Assembly: GCA_910592345.1 (NCBI GenBank)
Contig: CAJVPI010000343.1
Span: 1 to 34,361, forward strand
Length of the DNA stretch: 34,361 nucleotides
Direction: 5' to 3'
From: Paraglomus brasilianum
Taxonomy: Eukaryota
Part shown: positions 15,422-34,361 of the stretch, one piece after another
Layout: the number at the start of each line of letters is the position of its first letter
Numbering within the stretch: position 1 is the stretch's first letter
Notes under the pieces: generated by a model
Told to the model about the DNA's origin: nothing
What the model saw: the letters and a program-made list of their open reading frames with translations, nothing else
Databases searched by the model: none
Translations under genes and position numbers: made by a program

Positions 15422-16264
15422 CGAATTTAATACTTAGATGGAAATGCACTTTTAATAGTATAATATATCATGAATCAATAAAACAATTTCATTTATGAGG
15501 CCTTTACATCTATGTGTATTGTCTTTTCGAAATTCATGACGTTTGACCATTGTCACATTATTTTATCTCTTTAACACGTGCGCTCCCCAAATTACGTGCT
15601 AGCATCATATGATATCACTAGCAAAAGATTATGTTTCCTGAGCTTAAGAACCCATTGATAGTTTCCCACCATATTGGTAGATGCAAGATCACATGTTACC
15701 CTCCGGCGTTTGTATAATGATATATAACTATCTACCAAATACAGAGATTGATTTCCGTTTTAATCATCCATCCGTCAATTCTGTCTTTTTATACAGTATA
15801 CATTAAGCAGTGTATTGTACTGATATGACTGCAGAAGTAACCGGAAACAGTTGTGGCTACAATCACAATGATAAAGCTTTTGAATGTGTGTTGTTGTACA
15901 GACTATCGAAAAATTAAAAATTTATTCTTATTAAAAATTTAATAATAAATGTCGATGAATGCAAAACGTAAGTATAGTATTGCAGATTGTGGCTATGACG
16001 GTAAACATAGAAGGCCTTGTATTAGGTAGATAAGGTTTTGCAAAATAGTTCTTTCATAGTTTCCCGATTTACTTTTTGCCGTGTACCAGCCAATAAACTC
16101 ATTCTAATCGCTATAAATACTTTCATAGTGTAAACACACATGTAGTAGCGTTTCACTAGCATTTTTGTACGATCTGCTCTTCACGATGTATATATAGCAC
16201 TCTTACACTCGATATGTATTATTGTTTTCAAAAACGACCCGAAGTGGCAGCAATATAATAAGAA

Positions 16265-17977
16265 ATGAGTAAACAAAAGTTTGCATATAATATCGATACG
16301 AGTTATTATTATGGTAATGGAACCACATTTGAAAGAAAAGCTCAGTTGTTTCAAAATGCATCAATGCATGCAAATACATTATTTGCTCTTGCACCATGTT
16401 ATAAAAATGTAACTACAAGCAATCCAAAAGCAGACGTGCAAAGATATGCCAATGCTTTATTTAATCTTGCGTTGAGCTGTAAAAACGAAACTGGAAATGA
16501 TCAAAAGGTTGTTGAGTTATTTCAAAAAGCTGCTGAACAGGGGCATGCCAGGGCACAATTTAATCTTGCTTCTTGCTATAAGAATGGAATTGGAGTAAAA
16601 AAAAATGATCAAAAAGCAGCTGAGCTGTTTCAATTAGCCGCTGAAAAGGGACATGCTAGAGCACAATATAATCTTGCATTATGCTATAAGAATGGATGTG
16701 GTGTGGAAATAGATGATCACAAAGCATTTGAGTTTTACCAAAAAGCTGCTGAACAAGGGTATAGCAGAGCACAATGTAATCTTGGTGTGTGTTATGAAAA
16801 TGGTACTGGGGTAGAAAAAAATTATCAAAAGGCAGTTGAATTCTATCAAAAAGCAGCCGAGCAAGGACATGCTCGAGCACAATGCAACCTTGGTTTATGT
16901 TATCAAAATGGAACTGGAATAGAAAAAGATAGCCAAAAAGCATTTCAACTTTATCAACAAGCTGCTGAACAAGGATATGCTAGTGCACAATACAACCTTG
17001 CTTTATGTTATAAACATAGTATTGGAACAGTTAAAAATGATCATGAAGCAATTAAATTATATCAAAAAGCTGCTGCTCAAGGAGATGCTGATGCACAGTA
17101 CAATCTTGCTCTGTGTTATAAATCTGGAATTGGCATAGAAAAAAAAGATGAGTTTGCAGTTGAATTGTATCAAAAGGCAGCTGAGCAAGGACTTTTGAAA
17201 GCACAATACAATCTTGCTTTATGTTATGAAAATGGAACAGGAGTGGAAATAAATGTCTTGAAGGCAGTTGAATTATATCAAAAGGCAGCTGAACATGGAC
17301 ATGCAAATGCACAATACAATCTTGCTTTATGTTTTGAAAATGGAACTGGAGTAGTAAGAGATTATCAGAAGGCAGTTGAGTTATATCAAAAAGCAGCTAA
17401 TCAAGGACATGCTTGTGCACAGCATAATCTTGGCATTTGTTATCAATATGGAACTGGAATACAGAAAGATGATCAAAAAGCAGTTGTATTTTATCAAAAA
17501 GCTGTTGAACAAGGTAATGCTAATGCACAATATGATTTTGCATTGTGCTATAAATATGGAATTGGAGTAGAAAAGGATGTCCAAAAAGAAGTTGAACTGT
17601 ATCAAAGAGCAGCTGATCAGGGAATTATTGAGGCACAATACAATCTTGCTTTTTGTTATAAATATAAAATTGGAGTAGAAAAAGATGATGAAAAAGCATA
17701 TAAATTATTCCAAAAAGCTGCTGAACAGGGTGATGCCAATGCACAATATAATCTTGCTTTATTTTATAAATATGGAATTGTAACACAACAGGATGACAAA
17801 ATGGCAGTCCAATTTTATCAACAAGCTGCTAAGCAAGGGCATGCCAAGGCACAACACAACCTAGCTTTATGTTATAAATATGGAACAGGAGTAGCCAAAG
17901 ATAACCAAAAGGCAATTGAACTGTTTCAAAAAGCAGCTGAACAAGGGCATAACAGGGCACAGCATTATCTTCTTTAA
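16265..17977 (+). CDS. Sel1-like repeat (SLR) protein, 14 repeats plus degenerate N-terminal copies
   Basis: Intronless 570-aa ORF of 36-aa units with consensus AxAQYNLALCYxxGxGVEKDxxKAVELYQKAAEQGH. No kinase domain and no signal peptide. Confidence 0.95.
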   Translation: MSKQKFAYNIDTSYYYGNGTTFERKAQLFQNASMHANTLFALAPCYKNVTTSNPKADVQRYANALFNLALSCKNETGNDQKVVELFQKAAEQGHARAQFNLASCYKNGIGVKKNDQKAAELFQLAAEKGHARAQYNLALCYKNGCGVEIDDHKAFEFYQKAAEQGYSRAQCNLGVCYENGTGVEKNYQKAVEFYQKAAEQGHARAQCNLGLCYQNGTGIEKDSQKAFQLYQQAAEQGYASAQYNLALCYKHSIGTVKNDHEAIKLYQKAAAQGDADAQYNLALCYKSGIGIEKKDEFAVELYQKAAEQGLLKAQYNLALCYENGTGVEINVLKAVELYQKAAEHGHANAQYNLALCFENGTGVVRDYQKAVELYQKAANQGHACAQHNLGICYQYGTGIQKDDQKAVVFYQKAVEQGNANAQYDFALCYKYGIGVEKDVQKEVELYQRAADQGIIEAQYNLAFCYKYKIGVEKDDEKAYKLFQKAAEQGDANAQYNLALFYKYGIVTQQDDKMAVQFYQQAAKQGHAKAQHNLALCYKYGTGVAKDNQKAIELFQKAAEQGHNRAQHYLL

Positions 17978-21839: not shown

Positions 21840-23004
21840 GTTATTTGTATATAATCTGTATTTGCAAATTAGTAAATATAATAAATAATGCTTGAATAGC
21901 TTACATAAATGGATTACTCGCTTAAGGTTATTGATATGCACACATGTCATTGCATGCATAAATAGCACTGTAACACAACCGTCCCGTAACATCACTTTGT
22001 TTGATCGTAGACATACAGCAGCGCGAATAAATAATTTAGAATCCCTCTGACTATAAATTCATGCAATTCGACACAAAACGACGATAAAATGACATCGGCT
22101 TCTACCGCTTTACGAAAGCCTAGAGTTAATAAATAAATATCTTATTACGAAACTTATTAATAGTCGACGTACTATTGTGTCTATACATAAGCTGCGATTA
22201 CAACGTACAGATTTATAAAGGAATAGAGTAAGACTTTGAAAAGTCGCTCCAATAATGTTTACGTAATAAACTGCACGCAAAAAATGCTATCAAACAGTAC
22301 GAATTATATGCACGACTTCTTAAGTTTCGCTCCCTCCAGAAGAATTCTTCCAGAACCCAGACACTCGGTCAAGAACCCAGTTGTCTCAGTCCAGAACTGA
22401 GACAGGTCCCAACTGAGGTATAACTATACGTTGAGATCCAGAGATTTGGCTCGCTATAATTGAATTTTGACTTTCGAGCCTTTACCATTGTCGAAAACAT
22501 TTTATACATGGTAAACCAAACGAGTTATTTGATAGATACGAAGACAGCTGAATTCAAGAGTTAAGGGATTTAAAGCTGTAATTTGGTTAAATCTGACACG
22601 ATTATCGTCGAGATGTTTTTCAACTCACTGTTTTTAGCCAAGCCGTAGCCGCTTGCAGATAGATACATAGTGCTTTATAATATTAATATTAAGCTAGTCT
22701 TCATTTTATTTCAACTTGTATGGTATTAACCGTAGTGATCAATTTCATATGATTTAGCACGTTACATATGATATTTTAGTATGGCTCTTTGGATGGGCAA
22801 TTTAGGTTAATTATTGAAAAAAGAGGTTGCGTAATACGATACTGCGCGGTATATCAACCAATTTTATCATTTTTTGGGGCGGGATCGCCTCACATGGAAT
22901 CGAAATGTCTTATTAGTAACGGCCCGATATACGCATATATAAAAAAGCTCAGGAAGCAATTCAACATGTAGTAACTTCACTACAGAATTCTGAAAAACGC
23001 TCCC

Positions 23005-24180
23005 ATGGCAGTTCCTCAGGCTACAAAAGAATGGATTACTGCGGAAGACGGCGAGAAAATATACACAAAGAAATGGCTGGTAAATATAAAATTGTCGTTG
23101 TGGAAAAACTCCGTCCTCTCTTTCTGCGCTAAATTTTGCGCATGTTATAATAGCCTGCAAACGGATCACCGGTAGCAACTGTGGTCTTCTGCCATGGTTT
23201 CGGTGAACACATAAATCGCTACTGCCACGTATTTGAAAAGTTTGCCGAAGCTGGAATAGAAGTATATGGTTATGACCAACGAGGATTTGGTCGTACTGGC
23301 AAAAAAAATAATAATCTCGGTGTCACTGGCGGATGGGGTATTTCCTGTTCAGACATTACTGATGCACTTAGGAAACAACGTAAACAAGGAATTCCTCAGT
23401 TTCTTATGGGTCATAGTATGGTAAGTAGCCTGCGTGTCTCTTTATTAGAGAATGTTTGGTTTGAATTAACATCACCACGACTAATTATTAATCTAATAGG
23501 GTGGCGGCCTTGTGCTTCACTATGCAACAGTGGGAATGGAAAGAAACAATATATCTGGCGTCATTGCATGCTCCCCGTGGCTGGATCAGCCTCCTGCAAT
23601 AAGAGCAGGATGGATGCAAATGTGGTTGGGTGATATTGGGTCAATCCTCATGCCGAACAGGACCGTATCCCTTTCTGTTGATGCAAAAGGAATCAGTCAT
23701 GTCCCTGAAGTAATAGAGAAATATAAAAATGACAAACTTAACATTTCAAAGCTAGCGATTTCTGGAGGTATGTTCGACACGCATGTCATGTAGGAACCCG
23801 ATGTGGTTAGTCACAAATATGATATAAAACTTCTATTTAGTGATGGAGATTTTACACAATGGTCGGAAAATACGCGATACGGATTATATTAATTTGACAC
23901 AGCCTCTTCTGATGGCGCATGGGACTGATGATCCAATAACATGTTTTCACGCTTCAAAGGAACTTTTTGATAAAGCTCCATCAACTGACAAGAAATTTGA
24001 GCCATGGAAAGGACTATATCATGAACGTAAGTAGGCTATTCTCAACAAACTCTCAACAACAGTATTTGTTTCTAATTTCTAAAACATTGTGCTGTTACAG
24101 TTCACAACGAACATCAACAAGATCAAGTGATCAAATTATACATTAACTGGATATTAGAACGCGCTGGAAAGAGTAATTGA
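23005..24180 (+). CDS. Alpha/beta hydrolase, monoglyceride lipase / lysophospholipase (Hydrolase_4, Yju3-like), 291 aa, 5 exons
   Basis: Exons 23005-23079, 23154-23420, 23500-23767, 23841-24026 and 24101-24180 join in frame. Motifs: HGFGEH, DQRGFGRT, nucleophile GHSMG (split by intron 2), HGTDDPIT, GLYHELHNE. Confidence 0.93.
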
Positions 24181-25529
24181 GTAATAATTGGTGCTATCGG
24201 GAATACAACACAATGGTGGGTAATATATTAAGAGACTAGCGAATGTCATTAATATCAACAATTAACCAGTTACATTTAATATTCTACAGATCCTGTTATC
24301 GCGAACTCGATCACATTATTATTATCATATACATTTATTCAAATTTTTGATTTTTTCCCCTCTATTATAAATAGCAATATATTTATTGTTAAGAGTTTTT
24401 TATCTGTTTTCTTTGTTATCGACTTCAAATTGTTATTTATTATTATTATATATACTAATGAGATTATAGCATCTGATTAAGTTTTAAATATAATAAAAAC
24501 TTTGGTTAATATTCGTGTAGGATAGTTTGTGTGAATTCAGGTTGGTTCAATTGTCCTTAATTTCTAGCCGTCGGAGTTATTTACTTGTGCAGTTCTCATG
24601 TACGAGCTAATACTATTATTATATCGGTTTTTTGCTCAGATTAATAACAACGACGTTCCGGTGGAGAAGTTGTACTTTATCACTGCGTTTTCAAAACTTT
24701 CTCGATTACTAATCTAGAGAACCCAATGTTTAGTTTATTAACGTTATTACGTTAAAATGTTTGCATGTTTATGAAACATGAATTCCATATATCAAAACTA
24801 GCAAAAACTTGTAGTTTAATTTGGCTGCGTGCGGGTAAGTAAGTATAACGTGCGACAGTGAAAATTTTTATAATAATTTCAGCAATATAGATCATAGCCA
24901 GCCTTTAATTGAAATAAATAGAAGACGAATTAGCAATTGGTAAAATAATTCACAGTATGAAATATTTTGTAGTGTGTAATAGAACCAAATGCATGAAGAA
25001 TGTTTATAGACGAGTTTGTCTGATGATGTTATTATTAGCTAAACGGTTTACATTCCACTGCTTACATTAAAAATTCTGTCTGCATATTCACAATCAATGC
25101 AGAAGTTATGTCAGATACAGTATACATTGATTATGTCTACTGTTGCAGTCAGGTCAGTTATCTTCATGAGTCATTCTACATACCAAGAGCTAAACATGAA
25201 GTGACTGATGCATCGGCCATAATGCTTACAATAAGAGTTTACTTTTTTAATTCCTCTGAGAAACCATAAAAGAGCTGTATTTTTTCCTAACGTGTGTAGT
25301 GTTCCGCGTTGAACTTTACTGGCTTTCTTCCCGTAGCATCATAGGCAAATGGAGCTCGCCTTAAAATAGTGAATTAATTTGTTCCAGGACCGTAAATTCG
25401 CAAGTTCCACAACCGTAAAATAAGTAAGAAGCTTCGATTTAACGGCATGGCAGTATAAATGTGTGATGCGGGTGTACCTGAGTAGAATAATTCTGACAGA
25501 ATAGCTTAGTATCTTAATCACATGAAAAG

Positions 25530-25990
25530 CGTAAAAACCGAATATTTGTTAAAATAGAAATAATCAATTAAACAGGTTGGAAGTTTAAGGTTTTCCCAAA
25601 AATAGGGTCTGGCTAAAGCGGAGTAGTTTGTACACCAGAAATTATAATTTTATTGGTTGACATACAGTTTAATCCTGCTTTTAGTCTAGCCCCAAATCTG
25701 CTCATAGTGGTTTTTGGAAAAGCAATTCTTATATTGTTCACAGCCAGCAAATCCAAAAAGTGAAAATATATAACCGAAACCTTAAGAAATTGTACATAAG
25801 TACTGACGTAGATACTGTAAGGGAGATAGAGTTTTTGATTATAATGGATGATATTTAGAGATTAGTTTTTTAGATTAAAGTTAGTAATATATCTGCAGAC
25901 CATCTACGCCCGCCGATATGTGCTCGGGCAGTTGGGAAAACGAGAATAATAGTAAGGGAGGTTATTTGAATTTCTTGACTATTTGAGCCA
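25530..25990 (-). pseudogene. Decayed intronless ORF, possibly bacterial-type hypothetical protein
   Basis: Frame-shifted segments SLNIIHYNQKLYLPYSIYV / GFGYIFSLFGFAGCEQYKNCFSKNHYEQIWG*TKSRIKLYVNQ*NYNFWCTNYSALARPYFWENLKLPTCLIDYFYFNK. No splice sites; family not identified. Confidence 0.35.
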
Positions 25991-27701
25991 TTTTTTTCTG
26001 CTCTCGGTTGTAAGAGAGCGCTAATTATTACAATGAAATGTAGATGTTAAAGGTATTGGAACTAGGCAAATACCGGTTATTAGAATCGGTCCTTATGATT
26101 ATAGTCAAGAAATCCAGCACACTTTTCCAACACTTTTAAAATTCCGGTCTTTTGAATAGTATAATGATCGCTTGGTAAGAAGGAGAGAAGGAAGTTTTTT
26201 TCTAACTCAAACAATGCAATAAAAAGCAGGCCATAACGGCGGTGATACCGTTTTATTTAGGGCAAATGTATACGTCTTTTCTTTTTATTTAATCAGTCAT
26301 CGACAGTTAGACAAATTCAACAAATATCAGCATTGTACTTCTGTCGTTAAAACAAACATACGATTTTATTTCGTGAACGTGAAATGTCGTACTATTTGTC
26401 TGTCGTGCTATTTGTTAGATTATCTGTTAGAATAATTACGTTTATTGCATTTGCCAATTGAAAGTTTAATCTAACAAGGATATTAGATATGGACGTAAAT
26501 TTGCGTCCTGTAAAGGATTCATCTAATATTAGCATTGTCCTGAAAGTATACACCCGAAGCTGAACGAGAAGCTAAATTGTGGGATTGGCTGTTGGGAACT
26601 GAACAGCTTGACCTAACAATCAATCAAATCGATCTTAACCCGAACCAGATGTTCATCGTACAATAATTTTAATAAAGTTATATGTCACTGACTTGATCGG
26701 TTATACATAGAATATAAAGTCGAAACAAATGCATATTGCGTTAGAACTATACGTTTATTTCAGCCTAATATGTAGATTCTAATATGAAATAAAAAACGAC
26801 TAGCTATACATGAGTAATGAAGATCCTTACGATCAATGCGTTTAATAAATATCTTGTATGTTCGCTGAGTTTTTCTTTTCCTTTTTTTGAAGTCTAGTAC
26901 AAGTCACTATAACAATAATATGACGTCCGGAATTTTCGCTGGTCATAATCATGATGATCACCTTATATTATATATGGGAATATACTGTGCGACGTTAAAA
27001 GTGTTGGAAAAGTGTGTTGGATTTCTTGACTATAATGTCCTTATGCATTACAAAGTCATGAACGCAAGATGTGACACAGAATGAATTTAATAAATGCAAT
27101 GTTATTAATCTAGAGAATATCACTTTCAATCATATATATGATTATAATTAGTACTCGGGCTAACAATAACAATCAACAAATGATCTGCACAAATATTCGG
27201 GGTTCGAATTCGAAATCCAGCCCCTATCACTATATTAATCAACTTTAAACTGTTGTAGTGAATTGTTTTACTAATGTACTTGAGGTAAGATACGTAGAAA
27301 AATCTTATTTTGTGTAACCAGGCCATTAATCTAAAATAACGTTTTATCTCTCCTTGATAGCGCATTCATCGATAGACACAATTCATCTTCAGGCTAGGAG
27401 CTTTTTCGAATGCATATACAATGTCCATACTTCTCATACATGAAGTTTTTTTCTTGCTGATCACTTTCAATAGTAATAGTAAAGGCAAATCGCTAAAAAA
27501 GCAGGCTACGCTACACTCATAGACTGCAACACCTGACTATAAAACGCCACTATTTTTTGATTTTGCTATAAAAAAGGGATAAAAAGTTTTACATATGCAA
27601 ACTTATGATTTTATATTCAAAATTTGAAATTTACTGTTGAACCTTGCCCCTTGTTAATTTCTTAAACGATTTATTTCTTTTTCTTGCTCCCCATTAATCT
27701 C

Positions 27702-27866
27702 TCGAATGCCGAAATTTATGGCGGCTTAGCAAAGTCCTGAGATTTAGGCCCTTATGGAGCAGAATTAAAAAGAAATTTAAAAAATCTCTGGTGAAGGTAT
27801 TTTATCACCTCTAGTCCTTATAATATTGGCTGCGATAGTCAAGTAATTACCCATCCTCAAGTTTTC
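27702..27866 (+). pseudogene. glyQS: N-terminal fragment of alpha2-type glycyl-tRNA synthetase, genetic code 4
   Basis: Translates as SNAEIYGGLAKS[TGA]DLGPYGAELKRNLKNLW[TGA]RYFITSSPYNIGCDSQVITHPQVF, matching the consensus SSEIYGGLANxWDYGPLGxELKxNIKxxWWxxFV...GLDSxIxxHPxV. Both TGAs (27738-40, 27792-94) fall on conserved Trp positions. Confidence 0.93.
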
Positions 27867-28063
27867 CGCACAAGAGTCGATTTACCCAAAAGAATGCACG
27901 TTAAAATTTTGATCCTTAGTGAAAATGTCTAAGTTTTAGATTTTTTTTCAAGTAAACTAATTTAATCAGGGGTAGAGAAAATAGATTTCCGAGACTAGAA
28001 ACTGGTTTATATTTTTATACCGCAATAACTTTCAAAGAAAGCGAGGAACAACGACAAACAGAG

Positions 28064-28438
28064 TTACAACATGCCAAAAACGAAATCGCAAGAAAAAATG
28101 ACGAAGTGGTTAGTAGTTCCATCCTTAAGCCAAAATACTAACTTATACTTTTCCTCTCCAAACGGAATTCTTTTTAAAACATAATGGTCTCTTTTCCAGG
28201 TCGGTTTTTTCTTAGGTTCTGGTTCAGCATCCTTTCCGTTTAATTTTTCTTTAAAAATACTTAAAATTAGTTCTTTGGTAATTCCCTCTCTGCCTTTTTT
28301 ATCTTTCCAAGTGTAGTCGGTAATGGTTAAGTAGTTAATTTCCAGTTCGTTAAAAGTAAAGTTAAAGTTGATGGAGTAAGTTCAGCGTCATTCGTTATCA
28401 ATTTCCTTTTCCTCAATTAAACTAAACAGTTCGGACAT
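28064..28438 (-). CDS. Small bacterial ORF, open only in code 4 (124 aa); putative toxin partner of the adjacent HTH gene, 3' end probably replaced at a junction near 28103
   Basis: MSELFSLIEEKEIDNE[W]R[W]TYSINFNFTFNELEINYLTITDYTWKDKKGREGITKELILSIFKEKLNGKDAEPEPKKKPTWKRDHYVLKRIPFGEEKYKLVFWLKDGTTNH... Codons 17 and 19 are TGA, and the ATG overlaps the HTH gene end by 17 nt. Confidence 0.7.
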
Positions 28439-28806
28439 GTATTTTTTTATCAATTTCTTTAATGGTGATTTTTACTTCACAAGGAGAAAACAATTTATTG
28501 GTATAATCCATTAGTCGGTCCAAAGTAAAATGTTCCAGACGACAGTATAAAATGTCTTCAGTTTCCGCTTGGCTTAACTGGATTTTTTTAGCAAATTCCT
28601 CGGTGGTTAATTTATTATTTCGCTTATATCTGATTACTTTTTGACAAATCTCGTATTTAGCCTGTTCCAAAGGGGTAGGATTTTCGGGCAAAGTCCAAGA
28701 ACCTCCCTGATAATTAGGGTCTTCTAACTCCTCTAAATATTTTTGATATTCCTCTTTTTGAGAAAGTTCCTCGGAAAGAGTGTGTTTTTTTTTTATTACT
28801 CTTCAT
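28422..28806 (-). CDS. XRE-family helix-turn-helix protein (putative antitoxin/regulator), with a +1 frameshift in an A10 run near the start
   Basis: With A9 instead of A10 (T-run 28785-28794 on +) it reads MKSNKKKHTLSEELSQKEEYQKYLEELEDPNYQGGSWTLPENPTPLEQAKYEICQKVIRYKRNNKLTTEEFAKKIQLSQAETEDILYCRLEHFTLDRLMDYTNKL... The LTxEEFAKKIxLSxxExxxI....FTLDRL pattern is typical of XRE/HTH_37 domains. Confidence 0.85.
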
Positions 28807-28815
28807 ATCTATTAA

Positions 28816-29049
28816 CTATTTTTTATAGTTTTCTAATTCGGTTTGTACTTTTTTTTTTTGCTCTTGGTAATAAATTAATTTCTTTTTTTCTTCTGCTACT
28901 AATTGAGGAGGTGCTTTTTTGAGAAAATCACTGTTTGCTAGTAGTCTTTTACTTCTTTGACATTCTGATTCGTATAGTTTTAATTGCTTTTCTAAATCTT
29001 TTTTATCAATTTTTTCACGATATCATAAAATTCCAAAAGGTTGTAAAAA
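28816..29049 (-). pseudogene. valS: 3' end of bacterial valyl-tRNA synthetase (C-terminal coiled-coil arm)
   Basis: LQPFGIL[TGA]YREKIDKKDLEKQLKLYESECQRSKRLLANSDFLKKAPPQLVAEEKKKLIYYQEQKKKVQTELENYKK-TAG matches the ValRS C-terminal motif ExxRSxxxLxNxxFxxKAPxxxVxxExxKL. It ends 9 nt before the HTH ATG. Confidence 0.88.
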
Positions 29050-29283
29050 GTGTCACTTACGAATATGTTTAATTTTATACAGTAATAAAGCTACTGTATA
29101 TATATTTATTGTGATGCTAAAGTCCACATGTTTGATTTCTATTACCTAATTGTCGTGGGCCCATTATCTGAAATTATGTTTATTGTCACAGATACATATT
29201 ACCTTTTCAGAGAAGCAAACTATCATAACCACCCATGAATAGCCCAATTTAGTAATATTCGGCGAAATTGGACAATAAGTACA

Positions 29284-29890
29284 TAGTAAAACTCGATAAG
29301 TCGGGGTGGGCATGGTTGTCCGACTTATCGAGGAATCCGAGTTTATCGAGGGACCAATAGGATTCATCGTAACATAATTTCCTTTAATGTTATATTTCAG
29401 TATTTATAAGATTATCGGTTATTCAATACAGCAATAACGTAAATTTTATTTTAATAAACAGATAAAGAACGAAAGATTGTTATTACTATCGCTTGTTTAA
29501 ACAAATGTTCCTTCCGCATTCATAATTATTTATAGCTTTAACTTTGGTCTTTATTAAAGAATTCTGAAGGCTGGGACATTAGCCTTTTTCTGAAATAAAT
29601 AAACACGTTGTTTCGAAATGCAAATAATCGTAGAATGATATCATCAATGAATATCTTATGACGTATAATACATTACAAGAACGTCTTTCTAAATCGTCAA
29701 ATAAAATAGCAAAATCATCAATGACATAACGAGGTACAAACATTTTCTTTAAATTACACATAGCAAAAATCTTCTGCCGATCTTTGTGTAATCACGTGAA
29801 TCCGACTTACCCGAGAGTCATTTTAAATATGAAAAAAGGGGTGAGAGATTTTGTCCGACTTAAGCCAAATCCGACTTATTGAGTATAGCA
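29284..29890. mobile_element. Degenerate pogo-like TIR element / MITE
   Basis: Left end TAGTAAAACTCGATAAGTCGG pairs with right CCGACTTATTGAGT. The motif TCCGACTTA is reiterated near both ends; the termini are eroded. Confidence 0.6.
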
Positions 29891-30507
29891 CAGTCATCTC
29901 TACTTTTGCACGGACCGATGTCTTATAAAATGATTATCTGTGCTTTGCCATTTTCAACCACCATAAATGATCAATATAAAGGGAGCGAATGAAGTGATCG
30001 TCAAATCCGGAATTAGCTCTGCATAAATCTGCCAATCAGAAATTACGATAGGTAAACTAGATAAGTATTATACGTACAAAGCCTATCTAACATTTCAATA
30101 TTGTTATAGCTCTTACTAAACTTCAAACTTGGCGCTGACTATTTAAAGAGTCTGTGCACACTGTAGTTCAAATATCGATGTTCCAAAACTAACATCGGGT
30201 TTGGAATGTTCAATAACTTTGTTCCAATCAAGAGATTGACAATCTCGGTGGAATTTCCTGATTTAGCGTTGAATTTATATTTAATATTAGTCATATACTC
30301 AATATACTCTTCATCAATTATACTATCAAAACCACATGCTGTTAATCAACACCAGGCATACTCTTCGTCATATTTTCTCATTGGGAATTACCATAATAAG
30401 TATTCCGTTGAGAACTGTTGTTTCAGAATTTCAGGATCAGCACGCTGTATGTATATATATATGACATTTGTATGGACAAAGTTTCAGGAAAAGAATTTTA
30501 TTTTACA

Positions 30508-30703
30508 ATGAAGTACTTCATCTGGTTTATTGTTATTGCACTTTACGCGTTACCTCTCACTCAAGGTAAACTTTTTTTTTAATTTTTACCTTTTCTTTTT
30601 CCCACTAATTATTTGACGCTTTTTATTGGTAGCTGAACTCCACAAACGTCCCAATGAGGGTGGTGGTGGTTGTGGCGGTGGTGACTGTTGTAATTGCAAG
30701 TAA
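30508..30703 (+). CDS. Small secreted Gly/Cys-rich peptide precursor, 42 aa, 2 coding exons
   Basis: Exons 30508-30565 and 30633-30703, separated by a 67-nt GT-AG intron with a CTAAT branch site, give MKYFIWFIVIALYALPLTQA-ELHKR-PNEGGGGCGGGDCCNCK. A further GTAAGT...CAG intron lies at 30707-30780 and AATAAA near 30978. Confidence 0.75.
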
Positions 30704-32581
30704 AGAGTAAGTATTTATAAAATACGCAAAATTTTTTTATTCTTTATTAGTTTTTGATGGTCTCTTGTATTTGAAAACAGCAGAACAATACCTTAGCGAC
30801 ATCAACAGCACAACAGCGACGATGATGGCGACTAATAGCGACATCGATTATAAATGATGGTTGCATTGTTTAACTAGATTATGAATTTGCCTGGCTTCGT
30901 CAGGCAAGCTTGATATTAGTATTTTTATTATTTTCATGCAAAAATGAACATTGTTTTCCTCTTGCTTTAATTATTATAATAAAGGTAATTGTAACATTCG
31001 ACATTGAATGAAATATTGACTTTACAACCGTCTCGCTGAAGATGGAAAACAATGGATGAATGTATTAAAAAGAAAATATTCAACGTCAAAGTACATTTCA
31101 AGTAACTCAAAATTGGCCCGTGGTCAAAGAAAGCCCCCGACTATTCAAAAATAATAACGAAGAAAAAGTTGGACAGTCGACAAATGGATGAAGAAATCTT
31201 AAGAAGGATAGATTTAAGAATTACGGAAGAGGAGGGATAGACAGTCTCATCTATTTTATTTTCTAATTGTTTAATTGCTTTTTATATAATAACTTTAAAT
31301 AAAGGTTATTTTCATTCGTAAACTATGCCTTTTAGTTTATGTTTTAGCATCTCTCAAGTATTGGACATTTACAACCCAGGCTACGTTGCAATACATCGTT
31401 AAGTATGCCACTTTAAACATTGTAACAATTTGTTGTTTTGCTTTGCTAGACGAATCCTCTCGACTCACCAACCAAGATTATGTGTGGGTATTTCTGACGA
31501 AATAAATACCAATCAGTTGAAATGTGAGTGAGCAAGTTTGAGTTCACGATCCTATATCTAGCAGGTTTGTTTTTAATAACAATTACGCAGTTATAGTCAT
31601 ATGATTACAAGGGTAGCTAGTGATCGACGGATAGTTAAATTATTATGTTTTACAATCAATCAAGAATCAAGTGTATTCGGTTCAAACAGCTACAGCTGTA
31701 GCTTGTAGGGGATAATTTCACATGTTTTGCTCATTGATATTTTCAACAACCCGTTGTCGTTAGTATTCTCAATGTTGGAATGTCCTTATTATTTATTTCC
31801 ATTTGCTCAAGTTCACAAATTACTCCTCGGATGTTGTGCAAACACAAGACGGCATGGTGAATCATTAATGGCTTGATAAACTGTGTATTTATTGCCACTA
31901 TAAGTACGTATGTAATTAATTATAACACATATTTTTTAATCATTAAAGATTGTTTACATACAGCATCACAAGCAGATAATTTTAGCCACAAACTTCTTGT
32001 CACGGACTGCAAGATTGTTAGGAGACCCAAAATTTGGAAAGAAAACCTACGACGTATATAGCTTGTTTTTCGAGGCGGTTACCCATGAAAATTGTGTAAC
32101 ATGGTCTCTTCGTATGTAATGCATTTGTATTCACTATTTTGACGACTTCTCATATCAATAAGATCGACCTGTGTTTCATTGTAAAAAGAGAAAAGATAGT
32201 TAGCTATTTTTACTTATACACAGCCTAGGAATTCGTTTGCTATGATAAGTCTTGCCGATCTGTCTTTCTGAGCGGACGTCTAGTTATCAATTACTACTTG
32301 TACTCACAAACTTGACAACTAGTATTCAAGGGACGTAGCTGTATTGCCGATTATCTACAAATTGAAATAAGTATTATGTGGAATTATTTATTAAGAATTG
32401 CTTGGCATTTATAAATCCGTTAGATTCCATATCACTATAATCGAGTAAGTGCATATATATATACTGAGGACTACGCTTGAATATCAATAAGTAGAACATT
32501 GCGAGTAGTTGCTCTTCCCCTTAATTTTTTTGTACCTTCAAAAAACAGAAGGTAGGATGTAATTAGAATAAAGTTCACTTA

Positions 32582-32800
32582 CTCTCGTATCTCTTTATTA
32601 GGGTTTTTGTTGAGGATATTGAGGATATTTTTAACAATTTTCCCAAAATTGCTTCGCAAAGGCCTTCTGGATCAAGGGTCGTCTTCCAAGTAGTTTCTTC
32701 CATTTTTAATCAGCTGTCTAACTGTGCATAATATTAGTGCATTATGTGTACAAGACTTCATTAATATTGCATTAATTTTACTAACATCTATCGCGTCTGG
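32582..32800 (-). mobile_element. Mariner transposase N-terminal (HTH) relic
   Basis: DVSKINAILMKSCTHNALILCTVRQLIKNGRNYLEDDP*SRRPLRSNFGKIVKNILNILNKNPNKEIRE resembles the mariner pattern TVRRW..F.NGR.SLEDDPRSGRP. The stop at 32672-74 replaces Arg, consistent with CGA>TGA. Confidence 0.65.
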
Positions 32801-33229
32801 CCATTTCAACAGATTTGTAGAAATCGGTATTGTTCATGTGAAATTCGAGCCAGTGGTTTCGATGAACAAACTTTGAACAAAGATATCTCAACAACCGTCT
32901 ATTTACAACAATGATTTGGTTTGAAGATCAGAACTTGAGCTTTTATTTGATTAGTAAGCCCGTAAAACGGGAGGCATGTGGCAAGAACTTTTTGATCCTC
33001 TCGGATTGTAACTTATTGAAGCCGGCGCTCATCCAGCACGTCATGTATGACACAGATTATATCATCGTATTCTCTTTAACACACGCAGAGTTTTTTACAT
33101 TCTTTAGTAATTTCGCCAATATGCATCACAGTGAATGTATGCTGTATCCAGTGTTTAAACTTCGGATTTGCACCCACATTTGAACCATCAAGAATTTCGA
33201 TTGCCTGGATTGCAATTTTCTATGCAGTT

Positions 33230-34200
33230 GAAGACCTATGGAATTGCAATGAGAGAAAACCAATTCATAGTATTAAAGATCAACAAAATTAAGTGCTCTT
33301 TCACATTTCTCCTCCTAGTGTAGTAGAACTCAGTATTTTCAGTATTCCAAGGTTGAACCATTAGCATCACACCTGAGAAATATGTTTAAAAACTGTATGT
33401 GCCTGGTACAAATGTTTTGGCTGATGAAATGATTGCAAGATTTCTGGTAGAAGTATACATAAGTCCAATACCAAATGGATACAAAATTGTGATGCTGGTT
33501 ATACATGGACCTTCACATTCACATCATGAATTGAGAAGAATAGACAAATTACTGGACTTTGGGTGTTTGGTATGGCATTTAGTACACCAGCTTCCTAAAA
33601 CTGAATCCTATGATGTGTATATGGATAATTACTTTTCTAGCATTGCACTTTTCAAGTATATGTGTGATAATGGTTATGAAGCTTGTGGGACTGCTTGTTA
33701 AATTATGCCAAGAGTTAAAACTTGGCAAATTAAAATACCAACATTTGGATTGGAATACGTTGTTAGGAAAGGTATTAGAAAATGGGTTGGCCATATTATG
33801 GATTGACAATGGCCCAGTAATTATGTTACCTACAATCCATAATATTGGTAAAGAATGGACTGTGACACATGAGCATTGTAGACTGAGAGAAACTAGTTCT
33901 AATGCAAATACTGTTTGTTGAGTCTTCAGGAATCTTTCCAGGAAAGCATTAGAGATTTCCAAGATTATTATGACTATAATCATTATATGGGTGGTGTGGA
34001 CATTGCAGACCAACTGATATATGAGAGGGTATTACAATTGTCAGTTAACAGTTTGCAGAACATGGTTTCCCTTGTTTTTCTGGTCATTAGATACTACACT
34101 TGTTAATTGCTTTAAACTTTATTGTAAAGTCACTGACCAGAAAGTTGCAAGCAAATAATTTAGACTTGATCTGGCATGGGATCTGATAAACAGTACTGTG
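33230..34200 (+). mobile_element. piggyBac-family transposase pseudogene (DDE_Tnp_1_7)
   Basis: Frameshifted motifs KVEPLASHLR, PGTNVLADEMIARF, PIPNGYKI, VYMDNYFSSIALF, ACGT, WIDNGPVIML, YNHYMGGVDIADQL and WFPLFFWSLDTTLVN. Confidence 0.92.
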
Positions 34201-34361
34201 GAAGATGTGGGTAAAAGAATCACTAGATCAGACTTGTCTAATGCTAAAGACACATATCTCAGAAATTTCAAGATACATGTATCTATATCAGTCACTGAAC
34301 ATTTCACAAAATTTTTGATTGACTTGCAATTTCATATGGGGCAGACTGCAACAAAACCAGA

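Follow-up and report, generated by a model that had tools for sequence, protein, structure and literature searches.

The window analysed here, the whole 34,361-nt stretch of fungal contig CAJVPI010000343.1, contains an insert of 1,389 bp that runs from 27655 to about 29043. It holds a 161-bp internal piece of glyQS, the 3' end of valS, an XRE/HTH_37 gene, the truncated partner ORF of that gene and several small scraps (Table 1). The host side of the window carries intron-split fungal genes; its importin has matches in Mucoromycota, its alpha-kinase/vWA cluster is commonest in the same group, and Sel1 and piggyBac-type sequences are also present. From the Sel1 and alpha-kinase content we take the host to be an AM fungus. 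No tRNA genes were found in the window, and comparison with four MRE-group genomes revealed no other MRE-like DNA in the window outside the insert, save one Sel1 match.

Table 1. Features of the insert and its surroundings (positions in the window)
Feature	Position	Strand	Description
Left fungal flank	27300..27654		single-copy depth; continuous with right flank in empty allele
Piece A	27655..27704	-	50 bp; charged coiled-coil-like scrap; absent from empty allele
Piece B	27705..27865	+	internal MRE glyQS fragment, about residues 19-71 of about 460; two TGA=Trp
Piece C	27866..27898		33 bp; exact copy at another place in source sample
Piece D	27899..28019		121 bp; third locus; inside 2,890-letter soil contig (14 other letters, 4 gap letters)
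Piece E	28020..28103	+	about 84 bp; coiled-coil-like reading, from sequence only
Small ORF, HTH partner	28104..28438	-	two TGA=Trp; cut 9 residues short of end
XRE/HTH_37 gene	28422..28806	-	full length, one base out of frame near start; HTH_37 E 1.3e-6
valS 3' end	28816..29043	-	last 75 codons, one TGA=Trp; stop TAG 28816-28818
Right fungal flank	29044..29219		dispersed repeat; 85 letters joined to left flank in X6 contig 25
MITE-like multicopy element	29291..29884		21-nt imperfect inverted ends; neighbour outside insert

The glyQS, valS, HTH and ORF pieces are of MRE origin, and the insert shows cuts in mid-gene and mixed orientation. The glyQS piece matches the NCBIfam glycine--tRNA ligase profile PRK04173 (E 8.5e-16, profile positions 17-71 of 454), and in two whole MRE-group genomes an 81% match covers exactly its 161 bases, which bears out the forward-strand glyQS fragment proposed in the initial annotation. 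Soil contigs align from 27705 on, and upstream of that point continue natively. The 28 glyQS matches comprise six named Mollicutes/MRE, three filed under AM-fungus assemblies and 19 without an organism; none is named as another bacterium. The five in-frame TGAs that had been read as tryptophan (27738, 27792, 28384, 28390 and 29025) are confirmed, and the two in glyQS do fall at conserved GlyRS tryptophans, aligning to Trp in 28/28 and 26/28 homologues (the other two being gaps).

The valS end matches Pfam Val_tRNA-synt_C (E 2.9e-10). Its stop is separated by a 9-nt spacer from the HTH ATG at 28806, and the HTH stop overlaps the small-ORF ATG (28438) by 17 nt, so the reverse-strand block keeps the bacterial spacing earlier ascribed to it. 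From 28104 to 28834 the DNA is 87% identical to that of metagenome locus L011. The named matches of the HTH protein are GvMRE and RV_VA103A. In genome contigs the protein as a single query found no match, while the HTH alignment as query matched a single MRE chromosome plus nine distant bacteria. Overall, the named best matches are Ca. Moeniiplasma, DhMRE, GvMRE and RV_VA103A, and the pieces derive from bacterial aminoacyl-tRNA synthetase and HTH genes; the donor DNA is thus neither mitochondrial nor plastid. Soil runs X5 and X6 carry MRE-like homologues at 80-95%; soil and rhizosphere runs X7-X20 (n=14, small shares) were left out of the comparison.

The small pieces are harder to place, and A, C, D and E have no significant match among 101 loci. 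Piece D probably comes from an MRE: the soil contig that contains it has a depth of 9.4, and in that run the glyQS-like and HTH/ORF-like contigs have matching depths, 8.0 and 9.6. Piece A is probably also of MRE origin; it has a weak tblastn match to locus L055 (10/17 aa, E 0.002) amid many chance rows. Judging by its sequence, piece E may stand alone or continue piece D. For piece C a host and a bacterial origin are both possible, and it may represent captured host DNA. It is single copy within the window and has no match in viral contigs. In run X2 it stands as a contig of its own, 33 letters long at depth 150, with distinct loose ends to either side; contigs also break there in X1 and X4, but not in X3.

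An independent soil metagenome from another study (run X6) contains the empty site, whose presence the initial annotation had proposed to check in related strains, with flanks about 97% alike (2-3.5% apart). Its contig 25 joins 27642 to 29044, skipping 1,401 letters and placing 17 between. Over 27300-27642 it differs from the window at 8 letters and has 4 gap letters; 11 of the intervening letters correspond to 27644-27654, and the flanks are then linked by 6 bases missing from the window, with no target duplication. The evidence for the empty site is a single contig (depth 5.3), aligned at 80% likeness and with 85 letters on the repeat side; the site appears in one of the two soil runs compared, the contigs of the other stopping short of the junction. 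Comparison with the empty allele corrects the left edge from 27700 to 27655, before the 50-bp scrap that precedes glyQS. The right edge, formerly set at about 29050 against a MITE, lies at about 29043 and adjoins a dispersed repeat with many divergent copies in the source runs; the MITE-like element (depth >1000 in X1 vs about 190) begins only about 250 bp further on. The internal junctions formerly listed at about 27866 and 28103 stand, with one more added at 27898/27899. In X4, a different copy of the right-flank repeat, at depth 151, follows on from the final letters of the left flank.

The insert is fragmented Moeniiplasma-type (MRE) DNA in a Mucoromycota chromosome, absent from a close relative's allele, and was likely ligated from at least three, probably five or six, pieces during end-joining repair of a double-strand break. 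This upholds the initial description of a mosaic of Mollicutes-type endobacterial DNA in a fungal chromosome as regards MRE origin, nuclear location and construction from several fragments. Endobacteria lysed or degraded in the cytoplasm would release DNA that reaches the nucleus, where loose pieces would be ligated into the gap of a double-strand break. The joining, through NHEJ or microhomology-mediated end joining, would coincide with integration or shortly precede it, and stray host DNA, possibly piece C, could be captured in the repair. The outer joints show a 6-base target loss and no duplication, which fits end-joining repair as in complex NUMTs. The valS homology extends to 29047, 4 bases into the fungal flank; this overlap, judged from the donor's relatives, would represent microhomology.

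We infer that the pieces were joined during insertion rather than earlier inside the bacterium. Alternatively, the insertion is real, but the patchwork arose earlier, in an MRE chromosome prone to heavy recombination, and reached the nucleus whole. MRE genomes are indeed described, in excerpts of PMC11423566 and PMC10507103, as having many pseudogenes, repeats and Xer recombinases. The HTH gene and small ORF form a conserved two-gene unit with overlapping frames (a small-ORF homologue lies downstream of the HTH gene in 56/80 metagenome loci and in L001), and the gene upstream of the pair varies from locus to locus, so the pair changes its place. That valS and the HTH gene may have been neighbours in the donor is indicated by one 157-letter soil contig (95%), possibly itself a filled fungal allele, and by L020, where two ORFs stand between them. 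The distance between glyQS and valS is 13-26 kb in three of four related genomes and 364 kb in the fourth. The fragments are therefore non-adjacent (adjacent in 0/4), as had been claimed, but they may come from one neighbourhood rather than from distant parts of the chromosome. Against a pre-built patchwork, the scraps of 33-161 bp are cut in mid-codon run, include part of a housekeeping gene cut at both ends and are hardly decayed. The joints at 27704/5, 27865/6, 27898/9 and 28103/4 are crossed by none of the listed soil contigs and in 0/101 loci; DNA matches to the small ORF in L011-L014 and others stop at 28104, where those homologues run natively beyond. Piece C has its exact copy elsewhere in the host sample. 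We consider prior assembly in the bacterium unlikely.

It is far less probable that amplification or assembly fused fungal DNA with co-purified endobacterial DNA. MRE contigs occur in 19/389 public Mucoromycota assemblies (excerpts of PMC11423566), the uneven depth across runs suggests amplified libraries, and the junction data come from one sample, as assembled contigs only, with depth compared over 22000-34361. In X4 there is also one odd path, where the insert-bearing contig departs from the window sequence after 29175 into another repeat copy. However, both outer junctions lie, in identical form, on assembled contigs in all four runs of the source sample (X1-X4), whose depth profiles differ strongly, and one contig covers the entire insert (27020-30312, 0 differences). 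Depth over left flank, left junction, right junction and right flank was 185, 203, 188 and 171 in X1; 65, 64, 40 and 14 in X2, with 42 directly right of the insert; 35, 41, 41 and 11 in X3; and 21, 35, 19 and 18 in X4. The insert thus follows its flanks, with no step at the joints. The foreign DNA leaves and re-enters fungal sequence within 6 bases of the site set by an independent empty allele, and in X2 and X4 no same-sequence donor contig branches off at the glyQS, ORF or valS ends. The junctions in every run, the flank-like depth and the empty site together make a chimera very unlikely. Delivery by a transposon, virus or plasmid is the least probable explanation: the site is rich in repeats and flanked by two MITE-like elements and a piggyBac-type remnant, but there are neither inverted ends nor a target duplication at 27655/29043, target bases were lost instead, the insert has no recombinase, and 27640-28110 has no match among 72,556 plasmid records.

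Returning to insertion during break repair, we infer a young event that does not predate the split from the soil relative. This fits the little decay seen: only 3/318 otherwise invariant first and second codon positions differ, which is within the range of living homologues, and there is one frameshift. The dN/dS of the insert against living homologues is 0.04-0.19, so the divergence arose in bacteria under selection. The frames had been called near-intact, and little decay is indeed evident, but from its ATG the HTH frame is broken, as a ten-A run (28785-28794) shifts it by one base relative to L011, and the last 9 residues of the ORF are missing. CpG retention, formerly taken to indicate a recent event, is rejected as a clock, since CpGs are also kept outside the insert (observed/expected 0.95 over the whole window; 1.35 and 1.65 in the two MITE-like elements). 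The insert is very likely functionless. It would have been dead on arrival, because TGA is a stop in the fungal code and the sole complete gene free of TGA is frameshifted.

Complex NUMTs and NUPTs and mosaic 'numins' consist of fragments in mixed order and orientation, with blunt or microhomology joints, non-functional and placed at a chromosome break (excerpts of PMC6215612). The insert resembles them in its several non-adjacent fragments, mixed orientation and very likely lack of function; it differs in that its DNA came not from an organelle but from a heritable bacterium, parasitic or commensal, and in that one piece may be host nuclear DNA. It also resembles the nuwts of nematodes and insects, in which host chromosomes carry fixed DNA of an intracellular symbiont, Wolbachia, for the most part in dead fragments (excerpts of PMC3849323, PMC4046930 and PMC4299567). 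Unlike nuwts, it has a fungal host and a Mollicutes donor with TGA=Trp, is tiny and scrambled, and comes with an empty allele. The donor's code makes most of the coding pieces unreadable by the fungal host.

Known gene traffic in the MRE-fungus symbiosis runs mostly from fungus to bacterium, and the reverse has been a matter of gene-level calls that are hard to separate from contamination. One study, as excerpted, set aside Glomeromycotina-only matches because of contamination risk (PMC10507103). In Diversispora epigaea, whole MRE genes for RNase III, endonucleases and a methyltransferase were proposed to be useful to the fungus (Sun et al. 2019, as cited in excerpts of PMC8227670). Direction and donor group are the same here, but the insert is raw scrap DNA made of housekeeping-gene pieces, with readable junctions. 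MRE contamination of Mucoromycota assemblies takes the form of whole bacterial contigs (excerpts of PMC11423566), whereas the 1.4 kb here sits among intron-bearing fungal genes on a 34-kb contig and has an empty allele. Within the excerpted literature we found no raw, polymorphic, scrambled MRE insertion; the original article of Sun et al. 2019 and its supplements may describe similar fragments.

This young insertion, for which both junctions and the empty allele are available, displays the raw step of transfer directly and indicates break repair as its route. It suggests that MRE DNA leaks into the host nucleus much as mitochondrial DNA does. Moeniiplasma may even be organelle-like in one respect, an idea that we hold tentatively and at slightly less than even confidence: its DNA would continually rain into the nucleus and patch breaks together with stray host DNA such as piece C. 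If so, mycorrhizal genomes would contain numerous small MRE patches that are polymorphic between strains and keep a record of earlier infections and host switches; contamination filters would so far have discarded them, and the TGA=Trp code barrier would determine their fate. Patches of this kind could be used to date earlier MRE infections, inform the debate on early versus late invasion and mark strains or nuclei.

The small ORF has no family in Pfam or among PDB sequences. Its homologue at L011 gives a predicted model of pLDDT 92.5, for which Foldseek returned nothing at E 0.001. In VIA-align the best row for this model is BrnT (Z 5.2, rmsd 2.8, 73 aligned), with many RelE-family rows below, which hints weakly at a RelE/BrnT-like fold.

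The data support the initial annotation in treating this feature as real and its source as a Mollicutes-related endobacterium (MRE). The glyQS piece has 28 protein matches at 62-94% identity, six carrying Mollicutes or MRE names (Ca. Moeniiplasma glomeromycotorum twice, DhMRE, GvMRE and two MAGs), three filed under AM-fungus assemblies and 19 without organism; in this word-based, non-exhaustive search none of the 28 was named as another bacterium. The HTH gene has 147 protein matches, GvMRE and RV_VA103A among the named ones, and its second-best match clusters with a GvMRE protein. DNA matches, mostly weak, occur in 9 of 21 relatives of the MRE chromosome that carries locus L001. The two best of these genomes match exactly 27705-27865 at 81% identity, and soil locus L011 is 87% identical across 28104-28834.

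Translated with table 4, the glyQS fragment matches its NCBIfam profile at E 8.5e-16, the HTH_37 gene gives 1.3e-6 and the valS C-terminal arm 2.9e-10. All five in-frame TGAs reported from the sequence alone were located (27738, 27792, 28384, 28390 and 29025). The glyQS pair, placed there at conserved GlyRS tryptophans, aligns with Trp in 28/28 and 26/28 homologues, and under the standard code this piece is interrupted twice. Loci L020 and L101 have Trp at the position of the valS TGA, and the second TGA of the small ORF falls on a Trp that is almost invariant. In translation, pieces A and E resemble charged coiled-coil scraps, with no significant match in a search of 101 loci.

Features of the window discussed in the text
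Feature	Position	Remarks
Sel1 gene	16262-17977	fungal; 13 repeats; CpG observed/expected 0.16, strongly depleted
MITE-like element	26098-27036	inverted ends of 42 nt, 98% complementary; depth indicates multiple copies
Piece A	27655-27704	
Piece B (glyQS)	27705-27865	
Piece C	27866-27898	
Piece D	27899-28019	
Piece E	28020-28103	
ORF, HTH_37 gene, valS 3' end	28104-29043	minus strand
MITE-like element	29291-29884	
Small intron-split gene	30508-30700	
piggyBac-type transposase remnant	33390-34000	CpG observed/expected 0.06, almost CpG-free

The window, an entire contig of 34,361 bases, is fungal DNA judged by gene content, placed to phylum level; the gene content may further point to an arbuscular mycorrhizal fungus. 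Its intron-split importin exons have protein matches in Mucoromycota and chytrids at 52-67%, its alpha-kinase/vWA protein belongs to a cluster commonest in Mucoromycota, and it also holds an alpha/beta hydrolase gene and the piggyBac-type remnant. A 490-letter contig from X6, a soil metagenome run of another study, follows the left flank (27300-27642, with 8 other letters and 4 gap letters), continues with 17 letters, TTGCCCCTTGTAGCTGT, and resumes at 29044 for 85 letters. Because 11 of the 17 are identical to window 27644-27654, the insert runs from 27655 to about 29043 and replaces six bases; the comparison shows no target duplication. The locus first proposed, 27700..29050, was right, but its edges were not. 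Because depth in source runs X2 and X4 marks the left flank as single-copy, we took the X6 contig as the orthologous empty allele of a close relative, the empty site that had been sought, in one contig of depth 5.3 aligned at 80% likeness. Contigs of X5, the second soil run compared, stop short of the junction. A repeat copy in X4 has the final letters of the left flank directly before 29051, so two sources indicate that the flanks were once adjacent.

The claim that the insert is built from several endosymbiont pieces is borne out by homologues that run on natively past its internal borders. Soil contigs lose the match at 27705, continuing with the native glyQS start, and at 28104, continuing with the native ORF end, while loci L092 and L093 continue natively beyond 27865. 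Another X6 contig, of 2,890 letters, holds piece D in its interior and has the depth of the X6 glyQS-like and HTH-like contigs. Piece C forms its own 33-letter contig in X2, with other sequence on both sides, and X1 and X4 contigs also break there, which indicates an exact copy elsewhere in the sample. As no other piece branches in this way in X2 or X4, piece C seems somewhat likelier to be host DNA than DNA of a living donor.

Given the source, the junctions, the empty allele, the loss of target without duplication, the mid-gene cuts and the mixed orientation, we think it probable that endobacterial fragments were captured by end-joining at a double-strand break. Endobacterial DNA would have been set free in the cytoplasm and entered the nucleus, and its pieces would have been joined during repair; the donor relatives L020 and L101 suggest a 4-base overlap at the right joint. 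A mosaic already built inside the bacterium is an unlikely source. One 157-letter X5 contig spans the valS-HTH border at 95%, and may come from a bacterium or a filled allele. L020 has two ORFs between these genes. In four related genomes the distance between glyQS and valS is 26, 364, 13 and 15 kb.

That the joining is a chimera seems very improbable. Contigs from four source runs of one sample (X1-X4, holding 74-96% of the window's words) cross both joints in every run, at the left joint with no differences. A single X3 contig spans the whole insert (27020-30312) with no differences, and overlapping X2 contigs chain from 23856, in the hydrolase gene region, to 29615. The abrupt coverage change that would betray a chimera was absent: depth from left to right is 185, 203, 188, 202, 171 in X1, 65, 64, 40, 42, 14 in X2, 35, 41, 11 in X3 and 21, 35, 19, 18 in X4, with no step at the joints. 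Dropouts fall at strongly different places among the runs, which suggests separate amplification. Weighing against the joining, the insert-bearing X4 contig switches at 29151-29175 into another copy of the flanking repeat, with 1,133 unlike letters beyond; this may reflect misassembly, a switch during amplification or an allele that is genuinely rearranged. Transfer carried by an element is the least probable account.

The insert works like a complex NUMT (PMC6215612), although it is not a NUMT; it belongs with nuclear endosymbiont insertions such as the nuwts. MRE-to-fungus gene gains in Diversispora epigaea were reported by Sun et al. 2019 (cited in PMC8227670), the bacterial gene donors identified in Rhizophagus reportedly were not MRE (PMC5982333), and MRE sequence in fungal assemblies is handled as contamination (PMC11423566, PMC10507103). 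The available portions of PMC13315312, PMC12306442 and PMC10386755 name no such insertion, and that of PMC13419823 is about weevils. In a literature search, with subscription papers and supplements, chiefly Sun 2019, outside its scope, none of the papers listed dealt with scrambled or polymorphic insertions of MRE DNA into a fungal chromosome. MRE-type proteins (P0059, P0063, P0095, P0121, P0124, P0161, P0176, P0177) are annotated as genes in the assemblies of Ambispora, Funneliformis, Gigaspora, Paraglomus and Cetraspora, and are either contaminating contigs or further insertions.

Most of the insert's divergence is older than the transfer, as comparison with living homologues gives a dN/dS of 0.04-0.19 wherever computable (two pairs were saturated). 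The insertion itself is young, because the flanks are only 2-3.5% from the empty allele. The insert differs at 3/318 otherwise invariant first and second codon positions, which is no more than living homologues show when each is left out in turn (0-7 of 101-173). Recency had been argued from near-intact frames and retained CpGs. The youth holds, on the flanks and codon count; an additional A in a ten-A run, gained either before or after insertion, shifts the HTH coding frame away from its own ATG. The CpG argument fails: at an observed/expected ratio of 0.96 the insert resembles the window as a whole (0.95), and the MITE-like elements reach 1.35 and 1.65. All that its CpGs indicate is that the insert escaped the depletion seen in the piggyBac remnant and Sel1 gene. 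Short MITE-like elements keep CpG while the piggyBac remnant has almost none left, and decay driven by methylation apparently leaves short elements untouched.

The small ORF lies downstream of the HTH in 56/80 metagenome loci and in L001, and the genes upstream of the pair vary. The ORF has about 120 residues, no Pfam family and, in a predicted model, a weakly RelE/BrnT-like fold. For the model of the L011 homologue (pLDDT 92.5), a 73-residue alignment with BrnT gives Z 5.2 and rmsd 2.8, and RelE, MqsR, HigB and ParE rank lower; Foldseek returned nothing for it at E 0.001. The pair is widespread in MRE (L011-L090, L001) and is likely a toxin-antitoxin unit, probably of an undescribed family. 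The window copy of the ORF is truncated and has two TGAs.

The neighbourhood holds other curiosities. The Sel1-repeat gene has 64-65% DNA identity to G003:C1:502136-502667 in an MRE-group genome, a likeness that would fit transfer in the direction opposite to that of the insert. X2 is identical to the window over 26933-29615 but has divergent contigs across 22838-26962, with 28 and 23 other letters and 61 and 83 gap letters; a paralogue, repeat collapse or a second haplotype plus a crossover may explain the divergence. The small intron-split gene begins with what resembles a signal peptide, ends in a Gly/Cys-rich stretch and possibly encodes a small secreted peptide.
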